Shown: positions 2,988 to 58,020 of the stretch, in pieces | Numbering within the stretch: position 1 is the stretch's first letter | Layout of the letters: the number at the start of each line of letters is the position of its first letter | Assembly (NCBI GenBank): GCA_026770705.1 | Contig: JANJGN010000010.1 | Location: forward strand, 1,302,001-1,366,000 | Direction of reading: 5' to 3' | DNA length: 64,000 nt | DNA from: Isurus oxyrinchus | Lineage: Eukaryota | Translations under genes and position numbers: made by a program | The notes under the pieces: model-generated | The model's database searches: none | Seen by the model: only the letters and a program-made list of their open reading frames with translations | What the model was told of the DNA's origin: nothing

Positions 2988-3463
2988 GTTATATTTGTTG
3001 CAACACTTTCATTAACAAAGATGCCTTGCCTATGTAATTCTGTGGACAAAGAGCATTGTACTGATAAACCTAATTAAAACATGGTCTATTTAGCACTGAT
3101 CACACAATTATGACCTCTCAATATAATCCTTAGCTAACTTTTAGTTTTGTTTGGAAAATATTGCGTAATTCCTCTCCTCACTTTTATCATGTTTCCTTGA
3201 ACTGTGCATCATTATTAAGATTTCGCTTCTGGATCAGAAGCCTGTTGATATGAGCGAGAAATCAGAGCTGAAAATTTACCCCGACCTTCTCTGCAATATC
3301 TTCACACACCTTTGTCACCTATAGTATCGATCACCCAATGTTCTGGCAGACTTCCTATTCTCTAGCCTCCATAAAGGTCAGCATATCCAGAGCTCTGCTG
3401 CTAATATCCTATCTTCAAACAATAAGTTTCACTTGCCAATCACTATTGCCCTTGTTAACCTTG

Positions 3464-3739
3464 TTGACCTTCCTCCCATCATAAGGTCAGAAGTGGGGAT
3501 GTTTGCTGATGATTGCACAATGTTCAGCACCATTCATGACTCCTCAGATACTGAAGCAGTCCATGTCCAAATGTAGCAAGACCTGAACAATATCCAGGCT
3601 TGGACTGACAAGTGGCAAGTAACATTCACACTACACAAGTGCCAGGCAATTACCATCTCCGACAAGAGAGAATCTAACCATCACCCCTTGACGTTCACAT
3701 GCCCACCAAGTTTTACGTTGTCAGCAAACTTGGAAATAT
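3464..3739. mobile_element. LINE family A RT fragment (+) abutting a CR1 fragment (-)
   Basis: Near-identical to 2050-2285; then tcagcaaacttggaaatatt, whose continuation resumes at 5188. Confidence 0.75.
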
Positions 3740-8400: not shown

Positions 8401-9341
8401 CACCACGACATCACCATGACATCACCGCTACATCACTCCAACACCACCCTGACATCACTCCGACATCACCCCGACATCACAGCGACATCACCCCGACATC
8501 ACCGCGACATCACCCTGACATCACCATGACATCACCCCGACATCACCGTGACATCACCGCGACATCACTGCGACATCACCACGACATCACCATGACATCA
8601 CCCCGGCATCACCCCGACATCACCGCGACATCACCCCGACATCACCGTGACATCACAGCGACATCACCATGACATCACCACGACATCACCCTGACCTCAC
8701 CCCGACATCACCATGACATCACCCCGACATCAACCTGACATCACTGCGACATCACCGCGACATCAACCTGACATCAACCTGACATCACCGTGACATCACC
8801 CCGACATCACCGCGACATCAACCTGACATCGCCCCGACATCACTGCGACATCACCACGACATCACCGTAACATCACCTTGACATCACCACGACATCAACC
8901 TGACATCAACCTGACATCAACCTGACATCACCGCGACATCACCGCGACATCACCACGACATCACTGTGTCGTCACCCTGACATCACCCCGACATCACCCC
9001 GACATCACCGCAACATCACCTCGACATCAACCTGACATCACCACGACATCAACCTGACATCACCGCGACATCAACCTGACATCACCGCGACATCACCGCG
9101 ACATCACTGTGACGTCACCCTGACATCACCCCGACATCACTGTGACATCACCGCGACATCACCGCGACATCAACCTGACATCACCGCGACATCACTGTGA
9201 CGTCACCCTGACATCACCCCGACATCACCCCGACATCACCGCGACATCACCACGACATCACCATGCAATCAACCTGACATCACCGCGACATCACCGTGAC
9301 ATCACCCTGACATCACCGCGACATCACCCTGACATCACCAC
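5401..9341. repeat. 11-bp minisatellite, consensus GACATCACNNN, about 360 units
   Basis: Continuous 11-bp periodicity; variation concentrated in three positions (CCC, CGT, CGC, CAT, TCC, CCT, CAC). Confidence 0.98.
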
Positions 9342-14421: not shown

Positions 14422-15020
14422 GGATTTCTGCATCTTCTTTCTACACCCCTTCTTCTTTCTAGTGCAGACTTTAATCTCGGCCTTCGTATTGACTTCACTG
14501 TTGGACAGACTTCCCTCAGATACAAGCTCAACTTGTCTGAGCTCAGTCGCTAGGTCTCCCAAAATTTCATTATCTGTCTGCTTCTTGGAAAATTCTGCAA
14601 CTTTTGCTTTCAAAGCCTATTTGTCTTCATTTAACTGATTCTTCGACTCTTCCGTATCTTTCTTGTATTTGTTTGCTGCCTCCTGGAAAACTTAACATTG
14701 TTGTGTCTTCTCTGCCAACTCATCCTTCATTTTGTTCAGAGAGGTGCTGAATTCTTTCTGTTTCTCTTCATATTTGTCCAGAGGTACAAACATTGACCTG
14801 AGGGAATCTTGTCGTGTGGGAAGGTCTTTCATCAGGTTTTCTTTTCCCTGCGAAGGCTGCTCACCTCGTCTCGAACTCTGTCATCAAGCAGGGTCTCAAG
14901 TTCCTTCTGCTGTTCTTCCAGGTTTTGGTTTAAGACAGTCTGCATTTCTTTCGGTTATTGAGTCCTTACACACTCATTTTTCAAAACATGAACACTTCCA
15001 GCTTCCTTTTGGAATCCCAT
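14422..15020 (-). pseudogene. Coiled-coil coding fragment inside the Gypsy pol region
   Basis: Manual translation gives EMQTVLNQNLEEQQKELETLLDD / LRSMFVPLDKYEEKQKEFSTSLNKMKDELAEKTQ, with stops and a frameshift; no RT motifs. Confidence 0.6.
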
Positions 15021-18000
15021 AGGCCCATCAAGGTTGATTTCCCTTAGCCAATTTAGCCCTAGAAGGCTTGGTCCTCTGCCTCTCAATACCAACACTGATG
15101 GCTGTGCTGATTGCCTTCCATAACGGACAGTTACTCTGCGTATGCCTTTTACTTGAATGTCTTCACCCCTATATGTTTTTAGGGTGGCAGCTGTTTCTTC
15201 TAAACTTAGTTGATGTTCACCATTATTCAGATATCTGAAGGTATGTTTCCCAATTACTGTAGTGGAAGCTCCTGTGTCCATTTCCATTCTAACAGGTCTG
15301 CCATTTACTTTCACTGTGACAAATATTGGTTCTGTCTTTTCAGATTAAACAATGAGTAAATGTCAGAATTTGTTGTTTCAGGCTCTTCCACATTGTAGAT
15401 TTCATTGGGCTTCTTCTTTTGTTTACAAGTCTGTTTGAATCTTTCCTTGCGCTGCCTCATTATATGTCCATTTCTGTGACAAGAGTAGCATTCAATTTTT
15501 TAAACAGCCAATCACTAAAAGACTGCTTGTTTCCACCTCTACTAAAATTATTCCTCAATTTTGCTGCTAAGTTATTTTTCTTTATTCTTTGGCTAGTGGG
15601 GGCTGGTTCCCGCTTCTCGGCCTCTTTCGGTTAAGGTTTCCCACCTGATGAATGGCACCATTTTGCGCAACCTGTGTTTCTTGTGAATCTCTTACTGTGC
15701 TTTCCATGGCCAGTGTTATCTCCAGGACCTTCTTGAAATCCAGATTCACTTCAGCCAATAATCTTTTCTGAATCGTGTCCTCATTCACACCACACACTAA
15801 ATGATCACTGAGCGAGTCCTTCAGAGTCGTACCAAACTCACAATGTTCCATTAGCTGCTTCAAATTTGCCACATAGCATGCAATTGTCTCACCCGGACTC
15901 AATTTCGCAAATTAAACCTGAGGCTCTGCATCGGGACTGAGGGTTTGGATTGAAAGTGACTCTTCACCAGGTCCACCAATTCATCGAACTTCTTCAAAAC
16001 CAGGGGACTGGGTGCTGTCAAACTTCAAATCAGACTATAGATTTTGCTCCCACAATTACTCAAGAGGATTGCTCACCTCTTCTCTTCCCCCATAATCTTG
16101 TTCGCTTGAAAAAAACGTGAGGCGTTCTGTATAATGAGACCAATCGTCTGTGGCTGGTTCAAAAGGATCAATTCTCCAAAATTGTGGCATTTTGAGAGGG
16201 GATAACTTATTCAATTCGAATGGAGCTTGCTACTTACAATTATTGGATGAGGGACAGTGCCGATTTATTTTTAACTTGATTTCTTCTGTTCAATCTTGTT
16301 TTATCCTCATCGCCAGTTTATCTGTCAGGTGGCTGAGTTGTACTATTAGTAATAGAGTTGACCTGCAGACACTTCTTGGTGGAAACATTAAGTTTATTTA
16401 CAATATACTCACCAACAACTATACATGTGCTTTCAACTCTAACTCTATTTCTACACTGACAGTTGAGGTAGCCCTGCTACTCTCCAATTGGTTACTACAG
16501 ATCATGTGATCTTCCTTAACAAGTATTATTCTTAAAGGTACAGTACACACTAAATAAAATCACAATTATTACGTAGGTGTATTTTAATTTTGGTTGAGGG
16601 GTTTTTGAGGATGATGTTCAGTTCATATTGATGTTCCTGCAGAAATCACGATTGAATTAACTTTTAAAAATGTTAAAAAGAGGATATTAAGTTTTCCTGA
16701 AACTACTCCATGGTGCAGTGGAGCTAGACTGGGCTAATTCTCTAGTCTCAAACCACTTCACCTTGATGAATAGGTGTACGCAATAAACTTAACATTAGAT
16801 TGGCAGGGTAGTAGGAGATTAATGAGCATCAGCACATGTGTCACCACTAACCATTTGAGCTACCCAGAGGCTGGGGACAGGCTTTCTGTACATCCGTTTT
16901 GTGGTTGGGGATGGTACATGGAGCAGAGGCTGAACAAGCGGAAACTAAATTAATACATTTCAAAAGAAAGGACGAATAGCTGGAATTTCTTCTGAGCTAG
17001 TCACACTCTGACTGCTACTATAACTGCACTGTGAGCATGACAGAAATCCTATTTCAATGTTTAAATGTGTAGATGGGATTTCTGCCTCATTCATGATACA
17101 GTAATGGCTCTCCAAGAGCAGAAAATCTGTTAGCTGTGAGCTAAATAATGTCACTAATGCATAACTGGCACATTTTGGGGAGGGAACTAAATATTGCAAT
17201 GGTCCAGGTCACTTCATTTTATTTTGCTTTACAGACATTATTACAAACCTGGTATTCTAGAACTAGTAGGCAGAAGGTTAATGTACAACTTTGGAAGGGA
17301 TATGTATGGCTGGTGATAATAGCCTTCATTTACCATTCAGCCACATCCCTAACTGACTGAGGATTAGGGACTGTGTTAGTATGAGCTGGCATTGTGTTCA
17401 GACAATGTCCCATTCTCGGTCAGCAGTTAGCTCAATTTGGCAATCTCATAACTTTTCTATTCAAACTAAATCTTTGTCTTTTTTTAGTGAAAAATATAGC
17501 ATAACTAAATCAAAATACTCAATAAACTGGTAAAAAATAGGACTTTAATTCTGCTGTTTTATGTTGTAAATAACATTGTGAATGTTCTGTGGAGTCTATA
17601 CACAGGACTTCAAATCTCTACCTATCTCGAGCTGTTCACCTCCCTTCCTGAGCAGGATTTATCTATTGAACATGCACCCCAGAAACAGGCCAGTCAGCCA
17701 AACCAGTTGGTGTTAATGTTCTATTGAAGCCTCTCTAACTCTTCCACATCTAATTCAATCAGCAGAAACTCTCTGCTCCTTTCTCCCTCAGAAGCTTATC
17801 ACCTTCCATTATTGCATCCACACTATTCACCTCTCCATCCACTGTGGCAGTGAATTCCACATTCTCCCCACTCGTCAGCTAAGGACATTTCTTCTGAATC
17901 CCCTATTGGATTTCTTAGTGATTATCGTATATTGAATGATTCTAGTTTTGTTCTCTCCCAAATATGAACATATGAACTAGGAGCAGGATTGGGCCATTCA

Positions 18001-33355: not shown

Positions 33356-33537
33356 CAAAAACAGAATTACCTGGAAAAACTCAGCAGGTCTGGCAGCATC
33401 GGCGGAGAAGAAAAGAGTTGACGTTTCGAGTCTTCATGACCCTTCGACCCTTCGGCTGCCAGACCTGCTGAGTTTTTCCAGGTAATTCTGTTTTTGTTTT
33501 GGATTTCCAGCATCCGCAGTTTTCTTTGTTTTTATAT
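33356..33537. mobile_element. Short Penelope-derived insertion with inverted arms and 14-bp TSD
   Basis: TSD TTGCTCATGAAGAT at 33342-55 and 33538-51; perfect 42-bp inverted arms 33356-97 / 33455-96; sequence matches 52670-52799. Confidence 0.92.
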
Positions 33538-33574: not shown

Positions 33575-33620
33575 TCAATAATCACTTTTTATATCTGTTA
33601 GGTACCCTTGTTTTCTGGAA
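33575..33620 (+). promoter_or_regulatory. Splice acceptor and short 5'UTR part of the RAG1 coding exon
   Basis: Pyrimidine tract cactttttatatctgttAG (AG at 33600-33601), then GTACC 19 nt before the ATG; matches the AG|GTACC start of mammalian RAG1 exon 2 as I recall it. Confidence 0.75.
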
Positions 33621-36600
33621 ATGGAATTGGAAATGGAATTGCCCCTGCAAATGATTCCTGATGATTTTAGACACTCAGGGACCACGTCTTTCATAAATTC
33701 CCAAAAGGAAGTCACGACTTCAATGGAAAAGCTTCATGAGACAGAGACTGTCACACCAGCTCGTGGCCAAGTGTGGCAACCCTCATTCTCTCTAACCAAA
33801 CCAGTGGGAACTCTGTCTTTGGAAACACTGCCTTTAGACAAGAAGACTTTGGAAGATAAGTCCCTGGAACACATGCCTTTAGAGGTCAACCCACTGAAAC
33901 ACAAGTTCTGTGACGTTCGCCAAATGGAGGCAAAGTCTTTGGAAGAACATATGTTACGGTTACAAAATCTTTGTCGTATTTGTGGGACTTCTTTTAACAC
34001 CACCAGTTATGACATGAAATACCCGGTTAGTGGCCCTGTTGATGATGTCACACAAGGGGTGCTCAGGAAAATGGGACACGGTGACTGTTTTTGGCCAGAA
34101 CTCATCCGTAACGCATTTAGGATTGATGTCAAGACCGATACAGAAGCCCAATATCCCACCCACTTTTGTTATAACTGCTGGCGGGTTGTCATACAGACAA
34201 TCAACAACAGTACGAATGAAGATGCGTTCTTCCCTGTCAGCACCATTGTTGAGTGGAAGCCACATTCCAATCTATGCAGCATTTGCAACTTTTCCAGTGG
34301 GACTCGCAAACGAAAAGGTCTCAAACGAAGTCCCCCAGTGGCAAAGAAGCCCAAAGTAGCAGCTGATGCTCCAATCAGACCAAGAGTCATGAAAAGAAAA
34401 GATCAAATAAATAGTACAAGTATTTTATTGGCTAAAAAGATTGTCAACTGCAAGAAGATCCACCTAAATTCAAAACTCCTTGTACTTGATTATCCCAATA
34501 ATTTCATCCAGTCAGTAACTTGTCAGGTTTGTGAGCACTTACTTGCTGACCCTGTGCAATCACCATGCAAGCACCTTTTCTGCAGAACGTGTATTCTCAA
34601 ATGTACTGCAGTCCTGGGCAAGTATTGTCCAGTTTGTAGGTTTCCTTGTGGTCCCACCGAGTTCAGGAGCCCGGTTAAGTCATTTATAAATGTCCTGAAT
34701 TCACTAGTTCTAAAATGTCCAGTGACAGACTGTGAAGTGGAGCTGAGACTAGGTGAATATTGTAACCATGTCCAAAACCACAAAGAACGAAGAATGAAGC
34801 AGGCTTACTCACCAGTAAACAAGGGGGGCCGGCCAAGACAACATTTGCTCTCTTTAACCCGAAGAGCTCAAAAACATCGTCTGCGAGATCTCAAACTTCA
34901 GGTGAAGGCTTTTGCAGATAAAGAGGAAGGTGGTGATGTAAAGTCAGTATGCCTCACCCTGCTGTTGCTGGCACTCCGAGCTGGAAATGAGCACAGGCAA
35001 GCAGATGAGCTGGAAGCTGTAACGCAGGGACGAGGATCAGAATTGAAGCCGGCAGTCTGTCTTGCCATTAGAATCAACACATTTCTAAGTTGCAGTCAGT
35101 ACCATAAAATGTATAAAACAGTCAAAGCTACTACAGGGAAGCAGATCTTCCAGCCTTTGCATGCACTCCGGAATACGGAGAAAACACTGCTGCCAGGTTA
35201 TTGTTCATTTGAATGGCAACCTCCATTAGCAAATGTCTCTACAAACACTGAAGTGGGAATCATAGATGGCCTGAGTGGTTGGGCTCAATGTGTCGATGAT
35301 TACCCAATGGAAACTATTTCAAGACGATTTAGGTATGATGTGGCACTCGCTTCAGCTGTGAAGGAGCTTGAGGATGATATTTTGGAAGGCTTAAAATGCC
35401 AAAATATGGACGAGTGTGTGAGTGGACCGTTCACTGTTGTCATTAAAGAATCTTGTGATGGAATGGGTGATGTCAGTGAAAAACATGGATGTGGTCCAGC
35501 AGTCCCAGAAAAGGCAGTGAGGTATTCCTTTACAATCATGAGTGTAAGCGTGATGAATGAAAACAATGAAAATGTGAAAGTGTTTGAAGAGCTAAAGCCG
35601 AACTCTGAGTTGTGCTGCAGGCCACTTTGCCTGATGTTGGCAGATGAATCTGACCATGAAACACTGACGGCAATCCTGGGCCCAGTAATTACCGAAAGAG
35701 AAGCCATGAAGACCAGTGATTTAATACTTGAAATTGGAGACTTACACAGATCTTTCCAGTTTATCTTTCGAGGCACAGGATATGATGAGAAGCTTGTGCG
35801 TGAAGTGGAAGGTCTTGAAGCCTCAGGTTCTATCTACGTCTGCACATTGTGTGATGCCACTCGAAGTGAGGCTTCACAAAACTTGGTCCTTCACTCCATA
35901 ACAAGGAGCCATGAAGAGAACTTGGAGCGCTATGAAATTTGGCGTTCAAATCCTTATCATGAGACAGCTGAAGAGTTACGCGATAGAGTGAAAGGGGTTT
36001 CAGCAAAACCATTTATAGAAACTCAGCCCTCCATAGATGCCTTGCACTGTGACATTGGAAATGCAACAGAATTCTACAGACTTTTCCAGGATGAGATCGG
36101 GGAGCAATACAAAAATCCTAACTCATCTAAGGAGGAAAGAAAAAGGTGGCAAGCAATGCTCGATAAACACTTGAGAAAGAAGATGAATTTGAAACCTGTC
36201 ATGAGATTGAATGGAAACTTCGCAAGAAAACTAATGACAAAAGAGACTGTAGAAGCCGTTTGTGAACTGATCCCATCTGAAGAAAGGAGAGAGATTCTCA
36301 GAGAGTTAATGCACCTTTACCTCCTCATGAAGCCAGTGTGGCGTTCCACATTCCCAACTAGAGAATGCCCAGACCTTCTTTGTCAGTACAGTTTTAATTC
36401 CCAGAGATTTGCGGAGCTGCTGCGTACAGAGTTCAAGCACAGATATGAAGGGAAAATCACTAACTATCTGCACAAGACTTTGGCTCATGTCCCTGAGATC
36501 ATTGAAAGAGATGGCTCCATAGGTGCATGGGCAAGTGAAGGGAATGAATCAGGCAACAAACTTTTTCGGCGTTTCAGGAAAATGAATGCAAGGCAGTCCA

Positions 36601-36827
36601 AATGCTATGAATTGGAAGACATTTTGAAGCACCATTGGCTGTACACTTCAAAATATTTACAGAGGTTCATGGATGTACACAATACATTAAAGTTTGGAAA
36701 GATTGCATCTGTCCCACCTGAAGTAACCAGCCAAGATAATACAGTAGTTGAAGATAATACAATAGTTGAAGATAATACAATAGCTGAAGATGATACAATA
36801 GCTGAAGGTGATTCCTTTAATTTTTAA
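33621..36827 (+). CDS. RAG1: V(D)J recombination-activating protein 1, single coding exon, 1068 aa
   Basis: Intact ORF with N-terminal Cys motifs (LCRICG, FCYNCW, WKPH..CSIC), C3HC4 RING ([17 protein letters not shown]), zinc finger A, nonamer-binding domain ([21 protein letters not shown]) and catalytic triad D613 (SCDGMGDV), D722 (GTGYDEK), E976 (EGNESGNK), equivalent to mouse D600/D708/E962. Confidence 0.99.
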
Positions 36828-43374: not shown

Positions 43375-45135
43375 TAGAAACTAGGAGCAGGAGTAGGCCA
43401 TTCGGCCCTTCGAGCCTGCTCCGCCATTCAATATGATCATGGCTGATCCTCTATCTCAAGGCCATATTCCCGCCTTCTCCCCATGCTCCTTGATATCTTT
43501 ACAGTCCAGAAATCCATCTATTTCCTTCTTAAATATATGCAGTGACTTGCCCTCCATAGCCTTCTGAGAATTCCACAGGTTCACCACCTTATGAGTGAAG
43601 AATTTCTCCTCATCTCAGTCCTAAATGGTCTATCCCGTATCCTGAGGCTGTGACCCCTTGTTCTAGACTCCACCCAGCCAGAGGAAACATCATCCCTGCA
43701 TCCAGTCTGTCCATTCCTGTTAGAATTTTATAAGTTGCAATGAGATCCCCTCTCATTCTTCTAAACTCCAGTGAATACAGGACTAGTGGGCCCAATCTCT
43801 CCTCATACGACAATCCTGCCATCCCAGAAATCAGTCTGGTGAACCTTCACTGCACTCCCTCTATGGCAAGTATATCCTTTCTTAGGTAAGGAGACCAAAA
43901 CTGCACAGAATACTCCAGATGTGGTCTCACCAAGGCCCTGTACAGCTGCAGTAAGACATCCTTGCTCCTGTACTCAAGTCCTCTGGTAATGAAGGCCAAC
44001 ATACCATTTACCTTCTTAACTACTTGCTGCACCTGCATGCTTGCTTTCAGTGATTGGTGTACAAGGACACCCAGGTCCCTTTGTACACCAACATTTCCCA
44101 ATCTATCACTATTTAAATAATACTCTGCCATTCTGTTTTTCCTATCAAAGTGGATAACTTCACACTTATCCATGTTATACTCCATCTGCCACATATTTGC
44201 CCACTCACTCAACCTGTCTAAATCATCTTGAAGCCTCTTAACATCCTCCTCATCACTCACATTCCCACCAAGTTTCATGTCATCAGCAAACTTGGAAATA
44301 TTACATTTGGTTCCCTCATCCAAATATATATTGTGAATAGCTGGGGCCCAAGCACTGATCCCTGTGGTACCCCACTAGTCACCGTCTGCCACTCCAAAAG
44401 GACCCATTTATTCCTACTTTCTATTTCCTGTCTGCTAACCAATTCTCAATCCATGTCAATATTTTTACCCTCAATCCCATGTGCTTTAATCTTACATACT
44501 AACCTCTTATGTGGGACTTTATCAAAAGCTTTCTGAAAATCCAAATACACCACATCCACTGGTTCTCCCTTATCTATTTTGCTAGTTACTTCCTCAAAAA
44601 CCTCCAGTAGGTTTGTCAAACATGATTTCCCTTTTGTAAATCCATGCTGACATTGTCTAATCCTGTTGATATTTTCTAAGTGTCCTGTTATCACATCCTT
44701 TATACTAGAATCTAGCATTTCCTACAACTGATGTTAGGCTAACCGGCCTGTAATTCCCTGTATTCTCTTTCCCTCCTTTTTCAAATAATGGGGTTACATT
44801 TGTCACCCTCCAATCTGTCGGGACTGTTCCAGAATCTACAGAATTTTGGAAGATGACAACCAACACATCCACTATTTCCATGGCCACCTCCTTTAGTACC
44901 CTGGGATGTAGATTATCAGGCCGTGGGGATTTATCAGCTTTCAGTCCCATTAATTTCTCCAGCACTGTTTTGTTAGTAATACTAATTTCCTTCAGTTCCT
45001 CCTTCTCACTAGACCCTTGGTTCCCTCACATTTCTGGGAAGTTATTTGTGTCTTCCTCCATGAAGAGAGAACTAAAGTGGTTGTTTAATTGCTCTGCCAT
45101 TTCCAATTCTCATTATAAATTCTCTCATTTCGGAC
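43375..45135 (-). mobile_element. CR1 LINE (family B) RT region and 3' tail
   Basis: KSPRPDNLHPRVLKE, QHGFTKGKSCLTNL, YLDFQKAFDKVPH, KFADD, YRALVRPHLEY. Confidence 0.92.
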
Positions 45136-45614
45136 TGAGCAAGAGAGTGGTGGAGGCAATGTCAATCGAGGCTTTCAAGACGGAATTGGATTCAAGAGAG
45201 AATCCGCAAAGGATGAATGTGAAGATTACAGTGAAAAGGCAGAGGAGTGGGGCTAGGTAAATTGCTCCTTTAAAGGGCTAGCATAGACGTGATGGGCCAA
45301 ATGACCTCTTTCTGTATTGTAACCATCCTGTTTATTTCTGAAAACAGTTATATGCTATGAGTGGTTAGGATTAGAATGCAGTGAGGGTGGTGGTTACAGA
45401 TTTAATCACATCATCCAGGGATATGGAGAAACAGAGGGGGAATGTGACTAGCTGGATTCCTCTTTGAAACAGCTTGGGCAGATTTGATGCAGCAAACGCC
45501 TTCTCTCTGTGCCGTACTAATCTATGACTCCATGATTCAACTTACCTGAGCAAGATACTAGGCTTCTCACTGGAAAACTAAACTGAGCCATTGGGGGTAC
45601 TTGTGTTCTAACTC

Positions 45615-48600
45615 ATAGACTCATAGACGTTTACAGCACAGAAGGAGGCCATTCGGTCCATTGTGTTCTCGCCAGTCACCAAAGATCTGACTACATTAAT
45701 CCCATTTTCCAGTGCTTGGCCCATAGCCCTGGAGGACTATGAATATCTAAATAATTCTTAAATTTAACGAGAGTTTCTGACTGAACCACCCTTTCAGGCA
45801 GTGGGTTCCAGACTCCCACCGCCCTCTGGGTGAAAAAGATTCTCCTCAACTCCCCTCTTAGCCTTCTACCTCTTACTTTAAATCTATGCCCCCTGGTTAT
45901 GGACCCTTCTATTAATGGAAAAAGTGCCTTCCTATCCACCCTATCTATGCCCCTCAATCTTATACACCTCAGTCAGGCCCCCCTTCAACCTTCGCTGCTC
46001 CAAGGAAAACAACGCCAGCCTATCCAATCTTTCCTCATAGCTCAGACCCTCCAGCCCAGGCAGCATCCTGGTAAATCTCCTCTGCACTCTCTCCAGTGCA
46101 ATCACATCCTTCCTACAATGTGGTGACCAGAACTGCGCACAGGACTCCAGTTGTGGCCTAACCAGCGTTTTATTCAGTTCCAGTATAACCACCTTGCTCT
46201 TGTATTCTATGTCTCAGCTAATAAAGGCAAGTATCCATGTGTCTTCTTAACCACCTTATCTACCTGCCCTGCTACCTTCAGGGATCTGTGGATATGCACA
46301 CCAAGGTCCCTCTGATCTTCAGACACTTCAGTACAAGGTCCTTCCATTCATAATCTAATCCCTTAACTTGTTAGCCCTCCCCAAGTGCATTACCTCACAC
46401 TTTTTCAGGTTAAATTCCATTAGCCACTGCTCTGCCCACTTGACCAGCCCATTGATATCCTCCTGCAGTTTACAGCTATCCTCCTCACTATTTACCACCT
46501 TACCGATTTTTATGTCATCTGTGAACATCTTGATCATCCCCCCTACATTTAAGTCCAAATCATTTATGTACGCCACAAACAGCAAGGACCCCAGCACCGA
46601 GCACTGCAGAACCTCACTGGAAACAGACTTCCAGTCACAGAAACATCCCTCTACCATCACCCTCTGCTTCCTGCCTCTCAGTCAATTTTGAATCTAACAT
46701 GTCACTTTGCCTTGGATCCCATGGGCTCTTACTTTCTTAACCAGTCTGCATTGAGGGACCTTATCACAGAATCAGAATCACAGAGTCAGTGCAGAAGAGG
46801 CCCTTCAGCCCACTGAGTCTGCACCGACACATGAGAAACACCTGACCTACCGATCTAATCCCATTTACCAGCACTTGGCCCATAGCCTTGAATGTAATGA
46901 TGTGCCAAGTGCTCATCCAAGTACTTTGTAAAGGATGTGAGGCAACCCGCCTCCACCACCCTCCCAGGAAGTGCATTCCAGACTGAGTATCAAAAGCCTT
47001 GCTAAAGTCTATGTAGACCACAGCAAATGCATTACCCTCAGCTACATCCCTGGTTACTTCCTCAAAAAACTTGACCAAATTTGTCAAACACGAACTTCCC
47101 TCAACAAATCCACGCTGACTACTCCTGATTAATCTGTGTCTCCAAGTGCAGATATATTCTGTCCCTCAGAATTCTTTCTAGTAACTTCCACACCATTGAG
47201 GTTAGACTAACAGGCCTGTAATTTCCTGCTCTATCCCTTCCTCCCTTTTTTAATAATGGGACAACGTTAGCAGTCCTCCAGTCCTCTGTCACCTCACATG
47301 CAGCCAGAGAGGATTTGAAAATTACTGCCACTGCCCCTAATATCCCTTCTCTTGCCTCCCTCAACAGCCTGGGATACATCTCATCCGGGCCTGTGGATTT
47401 ATCCACTTTTAAGGCCACTAAACCCACCAGTACCTCCTCTCTCTGTATGTTAATTTCCTCTAATATTTCACAATCCTCCACCCTGATGTCTATACCTGCA
47501 TCATCCTTTTCCATTATGAAGACAGACGCAAAGTATTCATCAAGGACCGCACTCACGTCTTCCGGGACCATACATACATTACCTCTATGGTCCTTAATTG
47601 GCCCTACTCTTTCCCTAGTTATTTTCTTGCTCTTTATATAGTTAAGAAACCCCTTTGGGTTTTCCTTTATTCTACCCACCAATGCTTTCTCATGCACTCT
47701 CTTAGCTTCCCTAATTTCCTTTTTAACTTCCCCTCTGCATTTTTTGTACTCCGCTAAGGACTCTGCCGTATTGAGCCTCGGTATCTGCCATAAGCTTCTC
47801 TTTTTTTCTTAATCCTGACTTTTATGTCCCTTTGACATCCAGGGTTTTTTGGACTTGGTCCCCCCTTTGTTTTTATGGGAACATATTTGCCCTGTACTCT
47901 CTATTTCCACCTTGAATGCCTCCCACTGCTCTGACACAGTTTTATCTGCAAGTAGCTGCTCCCAGTGCCCTTGGGCCAAATTGTATCTCATCTTAGTAAA
48001 ATTAGCCTTTCACCAGTTTAGAACTTTTATTCCCAGCCCAAACATTCTTTTCCATAACTATTCTAAATCTAACTGAGTTATGGTCACTATCTCCAAACTG
48101 CATCCTGACTGATTCGCCTTCCATCTGCCTGGGCTCATTTCCAAACTTTAGCTCCAGAACTGTCTCCTCCTTTGTTGGGCTTTCTACGTTCTGGCTAAAA
48201 AAGTTCTCCTGGATGCAACTTAAGAATTTTGCTCCCTCCCTACCTTACACACTGAAACTATCCCAGTTATTATTTGGGTTGTTAAAATCCCCGACTATTA
48301 CTGCCTTATTATTCTTACACTTCTCTGAAATGTGATGACATATTTGATCCTCTATCTCTCCCTGACTGTTTGGGGGTCTATACCACACACCCAACAGCGC
48401 GTTTGTCCCTTTTGTGTTTTTTACTTCTACCCATATGGCCTCATTTGATGATCCTTCCAAGAGATCATCCCTCCTCACTGCTAGAATTGATTCCTTGGTC
48501 AATATTACAACTCCACCTCCTCTTCTATCCCCCACTCTAACTTGTCTGAATACCCTATAACCAGGAATGTTGAACTGCCAATCCTGCCCTTTTAGCCAAG

Positions 48601-48985
48601 TCTCGGTCATAGCTATGATATCAAACTCCCACGTGCCTATCTGTGCCCTCAGCTCATCTGTCTTATCCCTCAGGCTCCTTGCATTAAAATATATTCCATT
48701 TAGCCTTGCTAAACTCACATCTTTCTTATCTAGCCTATGTTTCCTCTGCCTTCCAGACTCACTTACTAGTGTTTTAACTTCTAATTCTATCCCAGCTTCT
48801 CTCCCTCTGAACTACTTTTCAGGATCTCATCCCCCTGCCAATTTAGTTTAAATCCATCCCAGCAGCATTAGCAAACCTCCCTGCGAGACTGTTGGTCCCG
48901 TTCCTATTCAGATGTAACCCATCCAACTTGTACAGATCCCACCTCCCCCAGAAACAGTCCCGGAATCTAAAGCCCTCCCTCCTCA
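45615..48985 (-). mobile_element. Near full-length CR1 ORF2 (APE endonuclease + RT), decayed; a CR1 tail is nested at 46767-46987 with TATCA TSD
   Basis: YFNARSL..DIIAMTETWL, YRPP, VGDFN (endonuclease); GNYRPVSLTS, DFSKAFD, YINDL (RT). Confidence 0.92.
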
Positions 48986-49351
48986 GAGTATCTTTTATTT
49001 GCCCCCGGAATGTCTAATTGTAATTTGCGGTGAGAGGAAAAGCAAAACAGGTGATGATGCTGCGACAGGTTGTCTGACACTGCACCTGACTTCCTTTTTC
49101 AATGGGAGTGTTAGCTGAACAGATTGTAACGCTGGTTGCCAATCCACTATTGGTGTTAGTGCCTGGGATGAATTCTGTCCTTAATAGATGGTGACGCAGC
49201 TCATTCCCAATTTCAGTCAGAACATGAGAAGGAGACACTAAGAGGAAGCTGGGACATCTTCTCCATTGGGGGTGGAATATCTGGGAGAGAATTTTCATTC
49301 CCAGTAACCGATTGAGTTGAGCTGATATTGTCCCAGGAGAAAGCCGCTAAT

Positions 49352-49704
49352 ACGGGACCAACAGCCTCGCAGGGAGGTTTGCTAATGCTGCTGGGGTGGA
49401 TTTAAACTAAATTGGCAGGGGGATGAGATCCTGAAAAGTAGTTCAGAGGGAGAGAAGCTGGGATGGAATTAGAAGTTAAAACACTGGTAAGTGAGTCTGG
49501 AAGGCAGAGGAAACATAGGCTAGATAAGAAAGATGTGAGTTTAGCAAGGCTAAATGGAATATATTTTAATGCAAGGAACCTGAGGGATAAGACAGATGAG
49601 TTGAGGGCACAGATAGGCACGTGGGAGTTTGATATCATAGCTATGACCGAGACTTGGCTAAAAGGGCAGGATTGGCAGTTCAACATTCCTAGTTATAGGA
49701 TATT
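49352..49704 (+). repeat. Inverted duplicate of 48549-48901
   Basis: About 350 bp; about 8 mismatches by eye to the reverse complement. Confidence 0.95.
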
Positions 49705-50448
49705 ATATTAGACTTCTGCCAAAAGACGGGACTGGAGATGAATTCCAGGAAGACCAAGGACTTCCACTTCATCCACAAAAGGAAGACGTTCCTGTACAAC
49801 ACAAGAGCAAACTGGCAACTGAAAGGAGGTCCGATCTCTTACATACCACCAGGAGACACAGAGAAATACCTGGGTGCCAGAATCGACCCATGGGCAGGAG
49901 TCACTGAGGAGCAATGGGGATCCAGAATCGGTATGTGGATAGAGAATCTGAAGAAAGCAGCTCTTCGGACTATCCAGAGGATTGAAATCCTCAAAACGCA
50001 TATGATACCCTGAATATATTTCCACCTGATCCTTGCAGAGGTCTCACAGAATACAATAGTCAAACTGGACCAATGTATCAAGAATGGAACAAAAGAAACC
50101 CTATACCTTCCGCCACATACAATGGATGGTTTACTATACAGCAGCAACAGGAATGGAGGTCTGGGCATGTCAAGGCTCGAAGTGCAGATTCTGTCCGCCA
50201 TTATCCGAAAATTAGAGGCGCTGGAGAGCTCACCGGACGCGGTGATAGAGGCCTCTTTTGAATTCAGCGGAATTGACAACAAACAAACAATCGACTCCCT
50301 GAGGAACCTCAAAGTACTCAGAGAGATCGAAGAAGCCCTCAAGGATAGTGGAGGTCTAAGAGGGACCGATGAAGGATATGGCGCGGATGAAATTGGTATC
50401 ACAATGGGATGGACGGATACTACCCAAACGTCCAGACCCAAACCCATC
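49705..50448 (+). mobile_element. R2-like (RLE non-LTR) reverse transcriptase C-terminal/thumb fragment
   Basis: One frame with a single stop (50011-13): DFCQKTGLEMNSRKT..EKYLG..QRIEILKTHMIP*IYFHL..DGLLYSSNRNGGLG. Confidence 0.75.
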
Positions 50449-52298
50449 AACTTACTGCACTCTGTTCCCTCAGGTCCAACCCCAACATTGTCATCAAACC
50501 CGCTGACAAGGGTGGTGCTGTTGTTGTCTGGCGCATTGACCTCTACCTCGCGGAGGCTGAGCGTCAACTCGCAGACACCTTCTCCTACCTCTCCCTGGAC
50601 CATGACCCCACCACTGAACATCAAGCCATTGTTTCCAGGACTGTCACTGACCTCATCTCCTCTGGAGATCTTCCTCCCACAGCTTCCAACCTGATAGTTG
50701 CCCAACCTCGGATGGCCCGCTTCTATCTCCTACCCAAAATCCACAAACAGAACTGTCCCAGTAGACCGATCGTGTCAGCTTGCTCCTGCCCCATGGAACT
50801 CATTTCTCGTTATCTTGACTCCCTTCTCTCTCCCCTTGTCCAGTCCCTTCCCACCTACATCCGTGATTCCTCTGACATCTTACGTCACATCAACAATTTC
50901 CAGTTCCCTGGCCCCAATCGCTTCCTCTTCACCATGGACGTCCAATCCCTCTACACCTCCATCCCCCACCAGGATGGTCTGAGGGCCCTTAGCTTCTTCC
51001 TCAAACAGAGGCCCAAACAATCCCCATCCACCACTACTCTCCTCCGTCTGGCTGAACTTGTTCTCACACTGAACAATTTCTCCTTCAACTCCTCTCACTT
51101 CCTCCAAATAAAAGGTGTGGCTATGGGTACCCGCATGGGCCCCAGCTATGCCTGTCTCTTTATGGGGTATGTGGAACATTCCTTGTTGCAGTCCTACTCC
51201 GGCCCCCTTCTACAACTCTTTCTCCGGTACATCGATGATTACTTCGGTGCTGCTTCATGCTCTCGTCGGGACTTGGAAAAATTTATTAATTTTGCTTCCA
51301 ATCTTCACCCCTCCATCATTTTCACATGGTCCATCTCTGACACTTTCCTTCCCTTCTTTGACCTCTCTGTCTCAATTTCTGGTGATAGACTGTCCACCAA
51401 TATCTATTATAAGCCTGCTGACACCCACAGCTATCTCGACTACAGCTCCTCACACCCTGCTTCCTGTAAGGACTCCATCCCATTCTCTCAGTTCCTTCGC
51501 CTCCGTCACATCTGTTCTGATGATGCTACCTTCAAAAACAGTTCATCTGACATGTCCTCCTTCTTCCTTAACCGAGGTTTTCCACCCACAGTCGTTGACA
51601 GGGCCCTCAACCATGTCCAGCCCATCTCCCACGCAACCGCCCTCATGCCTTCTCCTCCCTCCCAGAAACATGATAGGGTCCCCCTTGTCCTCACTTATCA
51701 CCCCACCAGCCTCCGCATTCAAAGGATCATCCTCCGCCATTTCCGCCAACTCCAGCATGATGCCACCACCAAACACATCTTCCCTTCACCCACCCCGGCG
51801 GCATTCCGTAGGGATCGTTCCCTCCGGGACACCCTGGTCCACTCCTCCATCACCCCCTACTCCTCAACCCCCTCCTATGGCACCACCCCATGCCCACGCA
51901 AAAGATGTAACACCTGCCCCTTCACTTCCTCTCTCCTCACCGTCCAAGGGCCCAAACACTCCTTTCAAGTGAAGCAGCATTTCACTTGCATTTCCCCCAA
52001 CTTAGTCTACTGCATTCGTTGCTCCCAATGTGGTCTCCTCTACATTGGAGAGACCAAACGTAAACTGGGCGACTGCTTTGCAGAACACCTGCGGTCTGTC
52101 CGCAAGAATGACCCAAACCTCCCTGTCGCTTGCCATTTTAACATTCCACCCTGCTCTCTTGCCCACATGTCTGTCCTTGGCTTGCTGCATTGTTCCAGTG
52201 AAGCCCAACGCAAACTGGAGGAACAACACCTCATCTTCCGACTAGGCACCTTACAGCCTCCCGGTCTGAATATTGAATTCAACAACTTTAGGTCTTGA
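50409..52298 (+). CDS. Penelope-like element RT + GIY-YIG endonuclease, uninterrupted 629-aa ORF (5'-truncated element)
   Basis: IKPADKGG, YLLPKIHK, RPIVS, DVQSLYTSIP, GVAMGTRMGP, RYIDD, VYCIRC..C..LYIGET, terminal GLN. Confidence 0.9.
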   Translation: MDGYYPNVQTQTHQLTALCSLRSNPNIVIKPADKGGAVVVWRIDLYLAEAERQLADTFSYLSLDHDPTTEHQAIVSRTVTDLISSGDLPPTASNLIVAQPRMARFYLLPKIHKQNCPSRPIVSACSCPMELISRYLDSLLSPLVQSLPTYIRDSSDILRHINNFQFPGPNRFLFTMDVQSLYTSIPHQDGLRALSFFLKQRPKQSPSTTTLLRLAELVLTLNNFSFNSSHFLQIKGVAMGTRMGPSYACLFMGYVEHSLLQSYSGPLLQLFLRYIDDYFGAASCSRRDLEKFINFASNLHPSIIFTWSISDTFLPFFDLSVSISGDRLSTNIYYKPADTHSYLDYSSSHPASCKDSIPFSQFLRLRHICSDDATFKNSSSDMSSFFLNRGFPPTVVDRALNHVQPISHATALMPSPPSQKHDRVPLVLTYHPTSLRIQRIILRHFRQLQHDATTKHIFPSPTPAAFRRDRSLRDTLVHSSITPYSSTPSYGTTPCPRKRCNTCPFTSSLLTVQGPKHSFQVKQHFTCISPNLVYCIRCSQCGLLYIGETKRKLGDCFAEHLRSVRKNDPNLPVACHFNIPPCSLAHMSVLGLLHCSSEAQRKLEEQHLIFRLGTLQPPGLNIEFNNFRS

Positions 52299-52799
52299 AC
52301 TCCCTCCTCCATCCCCACCCCCTTTCTGTTTCTTCCCCCTTCCTTTTGTTTTTTCCAATAATTTAAATAGATTTTTCTTTTCCCACCTATTTCCATTACT
52401 TTTAAATCTTGTGTGCCAGGCTAGTCTTTCCACCCCACCCCCACTAGAGCTGTACCTTGTTTGTCCTGCCATCCATTCTTAATTAGCACATTCGTTTAGA
52501 TAATATCACCACCTTCAACACCTCTTTGTTCTTTGTCTGTGACATCTTTTGATTATCTGCTCCTATCACTGCTTGTTTGTCCCTACATCCACACCACCTA
52601 CCCCCACACCTCCCCTCCGGCTTAAACCAGCTTATATTTCACCCCTTTCCTAAGATTCACTTAGTTCTGTCGAAGGATCATGAGGACTCGAAACGTCAAC
52701 TCTTTTCTTCTCCGCCGATGCTGCCAGACCTGCTGAGTTTTTCCAGGTAATTCTGTTTTTGTTTTGGATTTCCAGCATCCGCAGATTTTTGTTTTTATA
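52299..52799 (+). mobile_element. Penelope 3' pseudo-LTR region containing a minimal hammerhead-like motif (52663-52701)
   Basis: AGTT-CTGTCGA-stem II-GAAACGTC-AACT; T-rich terminus. Confidence 0.75.
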
Positions 52800-53976
52800 A
52801 AGGCCACCTGTATCCTGTTTTCCAGAAAGTAGTGCCGGTGATTTAAAAGAAGGAAGGAAACAACTTTTAAAGGGAGATTAAATAAATTTTAGAAAGAAAA
52901 GTAAGCCTTAGAAAGCCAAAATTATCACTCTTGTTTGAAGCAACATAAGTTAAATGAAAGGAATAAGACGTATAATTATACATCTGTGCAAAGCCAGTTG
53001 CATCCATAATCCAAAGCAATATGAAATAAACTACCTTTACTCTCAGAGGTTAAGACAAGTGTTGTTCATCTATAGTTTAGACAGTACGAGTCTCATACAG
53101 CTGGCAGCTTGCTGTTATTCTGATACACTTCTGTGTGTAATTTGTTGCACGTTGTTTGAACCACAAGCACACTGTATTTGGGCAGAGGTTCTGTATGGTG
53201 TTGTGTATAGGTCTAGGATAGATCTTTGATGTCCGCAGCATGTCTAAAGCATCTGTTTGGATCTGATGTTGAAAATAATCCTCTTACACTTCATTGTCTG
53301 GGAAACACACTGGGATATGTATGTGGTTATAAAAAGACTTTGGCCTCAAAGTTAGATTCCCCGTGATTGTAGTTTTGATGCAATGAGTTGGTATTGAAAT
53401 GGCATCAGCAGCGTTTGTACACAGTTCTGGTGTGGCCATGCTGGGTGTTGTCCTGGTGAAGGTGCGACTGTTGGTGTGTGTTCTGGGGGCTTGCTGATTA
53501 ACGCCGGTTTGACACCAGACTATAATTTATGATCTCACTGCTAAAGGTAACACCCTCTCTTAAACACACATAGTTAAACATGTGAACAACCGCAGGAAGC
53601 ACTGCCCCATCCCACTCTCAGTGTCTATCGTAAAGGATCATCAGCCACAATCAGAATCGATGGGCCGAAGGGCCTCTTTTGCACTGTGTGATTCTGTGAT
53701 TCTGTGAATCAGGTTAATCACTGATTAATTTCTACTGTCTCCGTTTGAAGTTGTAAACCTGCTGCTGGTTTCCAAAGTTGTCTAAGGTTAGTGATGTTTA
53801 CAGTAAGCCATGGAAAAGGCCTTCTTGTCAGACCACTTGTTCCCAGTTACCCCTCCCGTCAGCCTGCAGCATCAGAGGGAGATAGACAGAGGCAGGGGAG
53901 AAGAGGATAAACACTCACAGTGCCAGTATCTGAGCTGGTGGCTGCAAACGTGTGATCAATTGACAGCTGTGGTAAT

Positions 53977-56900
53977 TGTAAGTTAACTGTTTTCTGAATG
54001 CTATGGGGATCATGTGACTGTACAGACAAATCAGCCCCAAGCATGGGGAATCTTGGGGGAAGAGTTTTCTAGCCTTGATTTTGGAACAAGCATGTAGCCT
54101 CATCTGGAGCCTATAAATAGAGTTCACTGTTTCTTACAAGAAACCAGTCCTGCATTCCAAGTTTATTATATTTAGTGCTGATGCTGCGCCTCGACTTGCA
54201 ACTGTGGGTGTTTCGCTGTTTTAGGGGAAAAAAGAAATGAAGCATTTTCTCCCGTAATGCCTCTCTCTAGCAGAATTCACCCGGACGACTCATCCATCAA
54301 GGGCTGTAGTCAATACATAGAGCGGTTAGGTTTCTACTTTGTGGAAGGCTGGTCTCCTAAATATCTGTGGGAGCAAAACATATAAACCTAATCCTTAATC
54401 TGAAGACTCTGAATGTGCCAAATTCCAGATCCTTCACTGAGCTAGTCGACCTCGTGAAGGGACATTTTCAGCCTAAGCCCTCGGTGATCATGCAAAGATT
54501 CAAGTTTAACTCTTGAGTAAGGATTCCTGGTGAGTCGATTGCAATGCACATTGCCAAGTTAAAGCAGTTAATGGAGCCACAGTGACTGCGGGGATTCTTT
54601 AAACAACACATTGCGAGATAGTTTGGTTTGCGGCATAAACAATGACTCCATTCAGCACCGTTTGATTACAGAAGTTGAGGTAGATCCAAAGGAGATAGCA
54701 CGAGCAATGGAGAGAGCTGGGAGGGACTCGCAGGCTCTGCAGGTGTGCAACATGGTGCTGTTTTGTAGTTAGGGCAGGAACCTGCCGCTGGGAGACAAGC
54801 ATGAAGCGGGACACAGTCTGTAATTCTAGAAAAACAAAAAGAAATACTGGAAGCAGCTCACCAGTAACCAGGAGTTAAAGTGATACCGTTGTGGGGGAAA
54901 TCATGCACCTGAAGTCTGTAGAATGAAAGAGACAGAATGTCACAACTGCCACAAATAAAGGGCATGTTGTTAAACAGTGGAGGGCGAGGTCAAGGCAGCC
55001 ATTCAGACAGCAGGTCAAGTTAAATGAAGTGCACAATACAGATGAGCCAGAGATTATTGAGGCTGACGTTTATTCCCTACACAATCAGAAGGCCAGGCAA
55101 ACTGAACCATTCACTATTACACTTCAAGTAAATGGAAAGCCTCTGATCATGGATGTGGACACAGGAGCGTCGACCACAGTGGTGGGAGAACACGTCTTTA
55201 AATACCTCAGAGAAGGTATCCAGCCATTGAGTTTGGAGAAAACCACTGCTCAGTTAAAAACGTTTACTGGGGAAGTCATACAGGTGAAAGGCAACAAGGA
55301 GAAGGACCAAGCCTTCTGGGCTGTGATTGGTGGAAAGAAATCAAACTAAATTGGTCAGAAATCCTTCGGGTCAGGACAGGAGGGATTCCTGAGTTGCTGA
55401 AACAGTATTCAGATATGAGCTGGGGAAAATCAAAGGTCTACAAGCTAAAATACACATGGGCCCTGAAGCAACACCCCGGTTTTTTGTGCCTTACGCTCTA
55501 AAATAAAAGATAGATGTGGAATTATGTGGTTTGGAGAAGTTAGGAATAACTCAGCCAGTCCAATTTTCAGAATGGGCAGCACCCATACCCGCTATGATGA
55601 AACCAGACCAAACCATTCGAAAACAGAGATTATAAATTAACTGTAAACAAGGCTGCGAAAATAAGCAAATAGCCAATCCCATGGATTGAAGATCTGTATG
55701 CTAAAATTGCAGGAGGAAGATCCTACACTAAACTGGACATGAGCCATTCCTACCAACAGCTCGAGCCGGACAACAGATCAAGAAGTTATGTCACCAGAAA
55801 CACGCACAAGGACCTGTACCAATAAACACACCTACTCTTCAGTGTGTCATCTGCCTGTGTAATTTTCCAACCAACCATGGAAAAATTACTATAAGGACAT
55901 CCCCGAGTTATAGTGTACCTGGGTGACACCCAGATCACAGAATTCTCAAAAGCAGAACGTGTGGCCAACCTGGAAGAGGTTCTGGAGACTTTTGGAGGCT
56001 GACATTTGTTGAAAAAAGAAAAGTGCACCTTCCAAGCAAAGGAAGTCACGTATTTGGGTGATCGAGTGAAAACCAAAGGGTTGCATCCATTAGAGGGGAA
56101 AGTCAGGGTAATCAAGGAATCACCGTCTCCCACCAAACATCACGGAGCTCAAGTCTTTTTTGGGCATGGTAAACCAATATGGCCACATCTTGCCTAATCT
56201 ATCTACAGTGTTAGCTCCTTTACACTTACTATTGAAGAAGAAGCACAGATGGTCCTGGAAGGCACTGCAAGAGGAAGCCTTCCTAAGAGTCAAGAAGCTT
56301 TTACGCTCGTCGTGTCTGCTAATGCACTATGACCCGTCTATAGAATTGATACTCATTTGTGATGCAACTCCCTACAGAGTGCGACCAGCAATTGTCACAC
56401 AAGAAGGAGGATGGATCTGAAAGACTGCTAAGTTATGTATCCAGAACCCTTTCTGCAGCCGAGAAAGGTTACTCTCAAATTGAAAAAGTGGCTTATCTAT
56501 CATGTTTGGAGTAAAGAAATTCCATCAATATTTGCACAGTTGACACTCACCATAGAGTCAGATCACAAACCCCTGTCAGGTTTGTTTAGTGAAGATAAGG
56601 CAATCCCACCAATAGCCTCTGCTAGAATTCAAAGATGGGTTTTAATTTTGTCAGCATGTGAGTACACTTTTATGCACCGCCTGTTTGTGCACATAACAAA
56701 TACAGTCTCCCTGAGTCAGCTCTCTTTGCCAGACAGTATTACACATGCTCCAGTACCTCAAGAGGTTGTATTTGTGTTGAATTTCCTGGACTCCTCACCA
56801 GTCTGCGTGAGACAGATAAAGAATTGGACAAAAGAGGATCCAATTTTAACAAGAATCCGAGAACAGGTATTGCAAGGATGGTCAAATGCACAAGTCTCTG

Positions 56901-58020
56901 AAAAATTAGAATTCTGAGTTGTCAAAATGGTATCTTGTTATGGGGAGCAAGAGTCGCTTTCCCTGTGTAAAGAAGAGAACCTTTATTGGAAGAACTGCAC
57001 AGTGCGCATCCTGGTATTTCGAAAATGAAGATGCTCACACAAAGTTATATCTGGTGGCAGGTATAGACAGTGATAAAGAAAAAAATGGTGGAATGCTGTC
57101 TCCAGTGTCAGCAACGGCAGAAGTTGCCTGTTTCGGCTCCACTGCATCTACGGGAGTGGCCTGGTCAACCCTGGGTTAAAGCACATATAGACTATGTAGG
57201 TCCATTTCTAGGTACCATGTTTCTTGTGATCATTGACGCACATTCAAAGTGTATGGACGTGTTTGAAGTGAGATCATTTACATTGTCGGCAACCATTGAA
57301 AAACTACCCCAAAGTTTCAGTGTTCATGGTTTACCTGAGGTTATTGTGTCAGACAATGGTACTGCTTTCAAAAGCACTGAATTCCAAAGATTCATGAATC
57401 TAAATGGGATTAAACACATCAGAGCAGCATCGTAATGTCCCTTGTCCAATGGATTAGCAGAAAGGGCAGTACAAACTTTTAAAACAGGCATGAAGAAACT
57501 ATCCAAGGGAACATTAGAAACACAAGTTTCGAGATTTCTGTTCAGCTATCGTATAACTCCTCACGCGCCCACTGGTTTAACAGCTTCTGAATTGCTAATG
57601 AAGCATCGACTTCATACAAAATTGAATCTAGTATTCCCTAATTTAAAGGGGAAGGTGGAGAGAAGCCAAGGGAGTCAGGAAGTGAATTATAATGTTCACA
57701 GTAAAGGTTAAGGATTTACTGTGGGAGAAAGAGTTTTTGTACCAAATTTTGCAACTGGACCAGGTTGGAAAAGTGGAAAACAGGATTGTTGGGAAACACG
57801 TGGATCACCTCAGAAGTTGAGACACACTCTCCAACAATCAGTTACTCCACCTGCAATCAAAGTCAAACCTTTAATCTCTGAGGTGACAGACTGACAAAGA
57901 ACAGACAAACCTGATGTCTCTGTTGAAGTAAAGAATTCTGAACTGCCATTGTCTAAGGATGTCTCTGAAGCTGCAGCTCCTGATCAAGTCCATCCAATGA
58001 ACGAGGCTCCAGTTGTCTGT
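53977..58020 (+). mobile_element. Decayed Gypsy (Mag-like) provirus, gag-PR-RT-RNaseH-IN, no 3' LTR
   Basis: MDVDTGAS protease; KKEKCTF..VTYLG; ILICDA; SDHKPL; HIDYVGP, IVSDNG, SNGLAERAVQTFK; many frameshifts; homologous to the 12-16 kb element. Confidence 0.9.

Follow-up and report, generated by a model that had tools for sequence, protein, structure and literature searches.

A single-copy insertion of Penelope with an adjoining R2 fragment and an inverted local CR1 copy in Isurus oxyrinchus, and recurring R2-Penelope joins elsewhere in the genome

The chimeric insertions of LINE-1 (U6/L1, 28S/L1, tRNA/L1, Alu/L1) carry a target duplication, and their partners are attributed to template switching or ligation when in sense orientation and to twin priming when antisense (PMC13174262; the word 'Penelope' is absent from its available text). 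Here and below, statements about published work extend to the parts of each paper that were available. Complex LINE-1 insertions string RNA-derived pieces together and, at the target site, have either a duplication of local sequence in inverted orientation or a deletion, much as at the locus described here (PMC11702581). Among Penelope elements, PAc/Poseidon cuts and extends both strands in vitro, with two internal starts that define the tail; no copying of foreign RNA is reported in the available parts of that study (PMC11167929). Capture in trans is represented by Adineta vaga, in which an NRPS gene lies between Pen3a pseudo-LTRs, and template jumps have been proposed for such captures (PMC3846280). 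How Penelope elements complete insertion and form inverted ends is still open (PMC8557442, PMC11167929). R2 elements have been reported from cartilaginous fish (PMC13188248); PMC9977147 belongs to the further literature for comparison. Like the LINE-1 chimeras of PMC13174262, the present locus has a piece of foreign RNA origin 5' of a truncated retroelement in what is probably one insertion.

The composite and its parts

The locus lies between the convergent RAG1 and RAG2 genes in a 64,000-nucleotide stretch of DNA, called the window in what follows (assembly GCA_026770705.1, contig JANJGN010000010.1, positions 1,302,001 to 1,366,000). It is a composite of an inverted CR1 copy, an internal R2 fragment and a 5'-truncated Penelope element, all on the + strand (Table 1). 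The initial annotation, made from the letters alone, had these three parts adjoining without spacers; they do adjoin in that order, except that a 6-nt filler precedes R2. The R2-like part that it placed at 49705-50448 is indeed R2, with the limits given in Table 1, and the Penelope element that it placed at 50449-52799 keeps its start and 5' truncation but ends one letter earlier. The 3 letters directly after the filler (49705-49710) are compatible with both the CR1 template and R2 in the junction alignment. At the other inner junction R2 stands directly 5' of Penelope on the same strand, with an overlap of 3 nt (50449-50451).

Table 1. Features of the composite and of its flanks, in window positions
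Feature	Position	Strand	Basis
Older 5'-truncated CR1 LINE, donor of the inverted arm	46988..48983	-	APE endonuclease domain PF03372 at 48245-48811; other CR1 copies align from ~47000 to 48983 at 82-90%
Left arm, template inside CR1	48549..48901	-	Best non-self match of the right arm (best 40 of 3515)
Left flank, single-copy	48984..49351		1 match in genome; contigs of two related organisms, A and B, extend over it
Right arm, inverted local copy of 48549-48901	49352..49704	+	345/353; 11 shared non-majority states
6-nt filler	49705..49710	+	The arm's final 5 nt repeated, and one further base (junction alignment)
Internal R2 fragment: end of RT, thumb, linker; one stop; without R2 3' end	49711..50451	+	Positions 2641-3381 of a 4709-nt rDNA R2
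Open frame from out-of-frame R2 ATG into truncated Penelope ORF	50409..52298	+	Judged incidental
5'-truncated Penelope-like element, probably endonuclease-bearing, with RT, putative C-terminal GIY-YIG, 3' pseudo-LTR (52442-52798) and tail	50449..52798	+	Positions 1326-3697 of reference copy L090
Right flank, single-copy	52799..53300		1 match in genome; no target duplication with left flank

The two arms are each 353 nt long and match at 345 positions, all 8 differences being transitions, which bears out the ~98% identity first noted and the reading of the right arm as an inverted copy of the neighbouring CR1. They stand 450 nt apart, the loop consisting of 48902-48983 and the single-copy flank 48984-49351. 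The right arm is 98% identical to the left, as against 94% for its next match (among the best 40 of 3515 candidates). At 11 sites both arms carry the same state where most of 23 other CR1 copies have another; 2 of these states occur in none of the 23. By these shared states and this best match the right arm is a local duplication, and an independent neighbouring CR1 insertion is ruled out as its source. Host pre-mRNA was also rejected as the arm's template: no host exon was found in the 95 of 143 listed non-repeat frames that were scanned, and the site lies between RAG1 and RAG2.

The middle piece is 87% identical in DNA to L088, an rDNA-resident R2, and in the part compared its protein matches that of L088 at 120 of 144 aa (83%; E 1e-78). 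Judged by its sequence, it belongs to the genome's true 28S-rDNA R2 family, of which L074, L075, L087, L088 and L102 are inserted in 28S rDNA, the window fragment itself lying outside rDNA. The open 1300-aa ORF of L088 has an RT match (E 5e-34) together with Myb, C2H2 and zf-RVT matches that fall under the cut-off, and by eye it appears to contain a restriction-like endonuclease motif.

The dispersed R2 copies deserve description in their own right. In a tree of 30 rows they branch off stepwise towards the current rDNA copies and can serve as a record through time of a single R2 lineage. Off-target copies with native 3' ends include L080, L085, L097, L082, L100 and L099; several copies of this kind terminate in TAGC or TAGCC, like the 28S target, and L082 has a target duplication of 33 nt. 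Two full-length off-target copies retain ~20 nt of 28S sequence at their own 5' end. Six dispersed copies (L083, L105, L177, L180, L182, L282) carry 55-335 nt of downstream 28S sequence and were likely copied from read-through RNA. A cluster of similar rearranged copies at ~11.7-16.2 Mb of G000:C3 (L095, L096, L098, L106-L108, L184, L185) was likely amplified by segmental duplication. At L172:4527-5582 and L103:4566-6572, R2 fragments are followed by further R2 pieces, inverted or shuffled, with no Penelope attached.

The Penelope part matches the RT profile PF00078 above cut-off (E 2.7e-8) and, at its C-terminus, the GIY-YIG profile PF01541 under Pfam's cut-off (E 0.14 in the window, 0.0018 in copy L091). 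Its right end is the native terminus, set against unique DNA. The family makes up ~5% of 400 kb sampled; reference copy L090 has a ~390-nt repeat at both ends (pseudo-LTRs), and inverted arms are also present in the family. With standard Rfam models, no hammerhead ribozyme match was obtained at E<=5 in 52200-52900. Elsewhere in the window, a short head-to-head Penelope end insertion (33356-33536) lies ~50 nt before the start of the RAG1 open frame.

The initial annotation correctly counted one stop in the R2 frame and none in the Penelope frame (over 635 codons), and correctly placed an ATG at 50409 in frame with the Penelope ORF. This ATG lies within ordinary R2 sequence, in a different frame from the R2 ORF. 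The suggestion in the initial annotation of a mobile R2-Penelope chimera, which would be translated from this ATG, has become scarcely credible. The fused frame is open over 630 codons, whereas 0 of 16 other copies is open over the 566 codons compared; however, the 8 closest Penelope copies carry just 1-2 lesions each, so that zero lesions are unremarkable and the open frame of the window is read as chance. A mobile unit would also have to do without the 5' pseudo-LTR and the N-terminal domain of Penelope, and against the majority of 16 Penelope copies the fused frame shows 28 non-silent and 15 silent codon differences, many at CpG. Finally, a 33-nt pattern spanning the R2-Penelope junction, searched with up to 2 mismatches, has 1 match in the 4.98-Gb assembly, 1 hit among the best 40 scored spans both halves, and the junctions of sister loci differ from that of the window and from each other. 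RNA runs contain 7-12% of words by word matching, a figure that is not read as expression. The in-frame ATG is judged incidental from the sequence, and the locus is a single-copy, non-functional scar, its product dead on arrival.

Coarse age estimates can be made for all three parts. The R2 piece has an end branch of 0.032 (3.2%), of 1699 sites in the Penelope part 46 (2.7%) depart from the majority state among 16 copies, and the arms carry 3 and 5 changes in 353, the 5/353 of the right arm corresponding to 1.4% (95% range 0.5-3.3%). Estimated in this way the ages would overlap, the point estimate for the arm being about half of the other two. The earlier description of all parts as young holds only loosely, given the divergences of R2 and Penelope and the 87% identity of the R2 piece to the rDNA-resident R2.

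Target duplication is absent from the window composite, the best TSD score of 5-6 lying within the null. In contigs of organism B, whose unique flanks are 2-4% different, the left flank is followed by 31 letters of the arm (X6) and the right flank is preceded by 28 letters of the Penelope end (X6, X12); in organism A (X1) 30 and 29 letters cross the two outer junctions. These crossings of 28-31 letters are at or under the 31-letter rule, although a halt shortly past the outer junctions is usual for contigs that enter a high-copy repeat. The insertion is likely older than the A/B split. An assembly artefact could appeal to the shortness of these crossings and to inner junctions known from the assembly sequence alone, but it is a very improbable explanation: two organisms have contigs that connect unique flank with arm and Penelope end with flank, the 8 differences between the arms are those expected of copies that have aged, and junctions of this kind are found again at many loci.

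The surroundings can be described briefly. RAG1 (33582-36827, + strand) is intact, with a 1081-codon frame matching PF12940; RAG2 (L344:5924-7528, - strand), ~14 kb past the end of the window, is also intact (535-codon frame, PF03089), and the two genes face each other ~41 kb apart. As a pair they mark the host as a jawed vertebrate. The window further contains a 3.9-kb tandem array of an 11-nt unit in 358 copies (5401-9339) and broken LTR-retrotransposon pieces with aspartyl protease, RNase H-like and Gag matches (54927-57179, 14958-15344, 748-951).

R2-Penelope joins at other loci

R2 loci were pooled from 7 genome searches, the best 40 being taken from each set of 218-1404 candidates. One scoring rule was applied to 55 rows, from which rDNA copies, most of the C3 cluster and the duplicate L203 had been left out beforehand; dropping the window and the duplicates L288 and L295 leaves 52 that were counted. 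A join was counted where Penelope stands in sense at the R2 3' break or inverted at the 5' end, with the Penelope 3' side facing the flank, within an adjacency limit of 35 nt that was chosen after the first examples had been seen. Dispersed R2 copies with a broken 3' end are joined to an outward Penelope in 19 of the 30 listed (window excluded), a proportion that is not a genome-wide rate, because the loci come from lists of the best 40, the limit was set late and 3 of the 7 R2 queries were cut from composite loci (R2 part only); the opposite orientation is found in 0/30. None of the 16 listed copies with native ends is joined (Fisher p=1.7e-5 for 19/30 vs 0/16 listed copies), one of these, L283, having a sense Penelope end 28 nt upstream; among listed R2+28S read-through copies 2 of 6 are joined. 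Chance adjacency is expected at ~0.35% per end. The gap is at most 9 nt in 17 of the 19 listed joins; at L289 it is 31 nt, and at L169 just a short Penelope tail is present.

Target duplications were called at a score of at least 11, the calls comprising 13-16 aligned letters. A duplication encloses the whole R2+Penelope unit in 7 of the 19 listed joins (L077, L078, L169, L276, L277, L292, L293), and the other 12 listed sister joins have none at this cut-off. Whole-unit duplications occur in 0/11 listed broken copies that are not joined (p=0.03) and in 0/400 shuffled flank pairs. Their length in sister composites (13-15 nt) agrees with that at plain Penelope insertions, and plain Penelope elements nested in R2 have duplications of 14-17 nt in 3 of 3 cases. 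One duplication around the whole unit indicates a single event at each of these seven sister loci. In true nesting (L083, L105, L175, L181) R2 sequence is present to either side of the Penelope and abuts its termini; simple nesting was rejected for the window locus, where no R2 continuation is found within 44000-56000. Among 10 composites with a long Penelope part, window included, the identities of R2 and of Penelope to their references rise together (rho 0.79, p 0.007). Taken as sequence evidence, the joins are suggestive of repeated uptake of R2 RNA by the Penelope enzyme in this genome.

The same joins might be produced by read-through, or 5' transduction: a truncated Penelope would first sit in an R2 copy, for instance in rDNA, strong transcription there would yield a fused RNA, the Penelope enzyme would copy this RNA without any template switch, and the donor would be lost later. 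Penelope does enter R2 copies, as the four nested loci show, and under read-through, too, the junction would be in sense orientation and the unit as a whole would lie inside a target duplication. Such a donor should, however, yield offspring with a shared junction, whereas that of the window is single and those of the sisters differ among themselves, except at duplicated loci with the same flanks (L201/L203, L287/L288). Nor does read-through explain L077 and L277: at both, Penelope stands in inverted orientation on the 5' side, and the target duplication directly adjoins the broken end of R2, with no Penelope sequence there. This explanation is therefore considered unlikely. The arrangement at L077 and L277 suggests that copying began directly on R2 RNA at one of the nicks and on Penelope RNA at the second.

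How often Penelope takes up cargo was gauged in 40 arbitrarily chosen 10-kb regions. These contain 16 young Penelope insertions, 9 with an adjacent duplication, 1 with a duplication offset by 18 nt and 6 with none; long cargo inside the duplication is found in 0/16, so capture is rare per insertion. One search for host mRNA cargo, with eEF1A-family C-terminal domains, gave 7 matches, which by eye are intron-bounded exons, with no retrocopy among them, a result of little weight for host mRNA cargo in general.

Two further observations concern these loci. Some R2 5' breakpoints are common to independent loci, 3162 twice (L276, L292) and 2551-2556 three times (L081, L083, L084), and may mark a pause or a joining hot spot. 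An 810-nt inverted repeat of 98.5% identity (L104:242-1051 and 1716-2528) lies ~2 kb upstream of a composite.

One event or several

The composite of the window is best read, at a probability of roughly 0.7, as a single-copy Penelope insertion that became joined to an R2 fragment and to an inverted local copy in what was likely one event. The Penelope endonuclease would cut at 52798/52799 and reverse transcription would start at the tail end of the element's own RNA. At Penelope position 1326 the growing cDNA would move onto R2 RNA by way of the 3-nt match and copy 741 nt of it. The other target end, at 49351, would be trimmed, fold back on the CR1 450 nt upstream and copy 353 nt, after which a 3-nt match and a slip of 5 nt would link the foldback arm to the cDNA; trimming of this end would account for the missing target duplication. 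The initial annotation had proposed one reverse-transcription event that jumped from Penelope RNA to R2 RNA and then to flanking DNA. Its first jump is retained as a one-off capture of R2 RNA by Penelope, mainly on the strength of the sister loci inside one duplication; its last jump is less simple than foldback. Foldback of the target top strand is likely the simpler origin of the arm than a third jump of the reverse transcriptase, and the sequence fits copying by the Penelope RT or by a host repair polymerase equally well.

A single event is supported by the R2 fragment, which is without the 3' end needed for its own insertion, and by the Penelope element, which stands on its native terminus. 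What speaks against it is the lack of a target duplication at the window composite, the lower point estimate for the arm, and the fact that no sister locus has a comparable local copy: none was found at sister 5' ends, 22 of which were checked by junction alignment and 23 by self-comparison, the 22-locus check giving a single 48-nt hit, at L172, that is without explanation.

The missing duplication also fits two events, in which an R2 copy with a foldback 5' end was inserted first and a later Penelope downstream was joined to it by microhomology, with loss of the 3' part of R2. Native ends are indeed present in some off-target R2 copies (16 of the 52 listed), and microhomology can join the 5' end of a Penelope to the target with no duplication arising (PMC3846280). 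Two events would nevertheless require a deletion of at least 1.3 kb; they leave unexplained the 7 sister loci where one duplication encloses both parts and the concordant ages of R2 and Penelope, and the ages of the window's own three parts overlap. We regard this history as rather unlikely and prefer the single event.

A proposal of wider reach, to which we give a little less than even odds, is that Penelope is a main escape route of rDNA-specific R2 sequence in this lineage, its enzyme switching onto broken R2 RNA and being able to start directly on foreign RNA at the second nick, as at L077 and L277. If this is true, one retroelement class repeatedly writes the RNA of another into the genome, and the loci provide in vivo evidence for two-ended, template-promiscuous priming by Penelope.

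Comparison with known systems

The finding that merits follow-up is the repeated capture of R2 RNA by Penelope, which is open to testing in the PAc system already established in vitro; the window locus by itself is without sign of function. The R2-Penelope joins offer an explanation for many R2 fragments outside rDNA, and since the foreign cargo marks which end came from which RNA, these loci show template choice at both nicks. The class of Penelope-R2 chimeras was not found in the literature searched, which did not reach supplements and most subscription journals.

The source family resembles the R2 of 28S rDNA in PMC13188248 in that its single ORF of 1300 aa matches zinc-finger, Myb and RT profiles and that it resides in 28S rDNA; the piece in the window differs in being internal, outside rDNA and without a 3' end, and dispersed copies are not discussed in the available part of that paper. 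The Penelope ends, which fall near 3662 and 3697 of reference copy L090, 35 nt apart, are reminiscent of the two internal starts of PAc/Poseidon (PMC11167929).

The window locus, we infer, works like a chimeric insertion; because it has no target duplication around the whole unit, membership of that class is shown for the 7 sister loci only. Both partner orientations known from LINE-1 chimeras also occur here. The driver differs, being in this case a telomerase-related Penelope RT with a putative GIY-YIG nuclease, and so does the cargo, which is the coding RNA of another autonomous retrotransposon, ~0.3-2.8 kb of it. The complex LINE-1 insertions of PMC11702581 arose after induced L1 expression in human cells, whereas the present one would be a fixed germline event driven by Penelope. 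Closest in architecture to L276 and L292 are the captures of Adineta vaga, in which unrelated sequence likewise lies between direct and inverted pseudo-LTRs inside one target duplication; there the cases are few and the cargo is intron-containing or unidentified (PMC3846280), whereas here one cargo, R2 RNA, recurs at ~20 loci with differing junctions.
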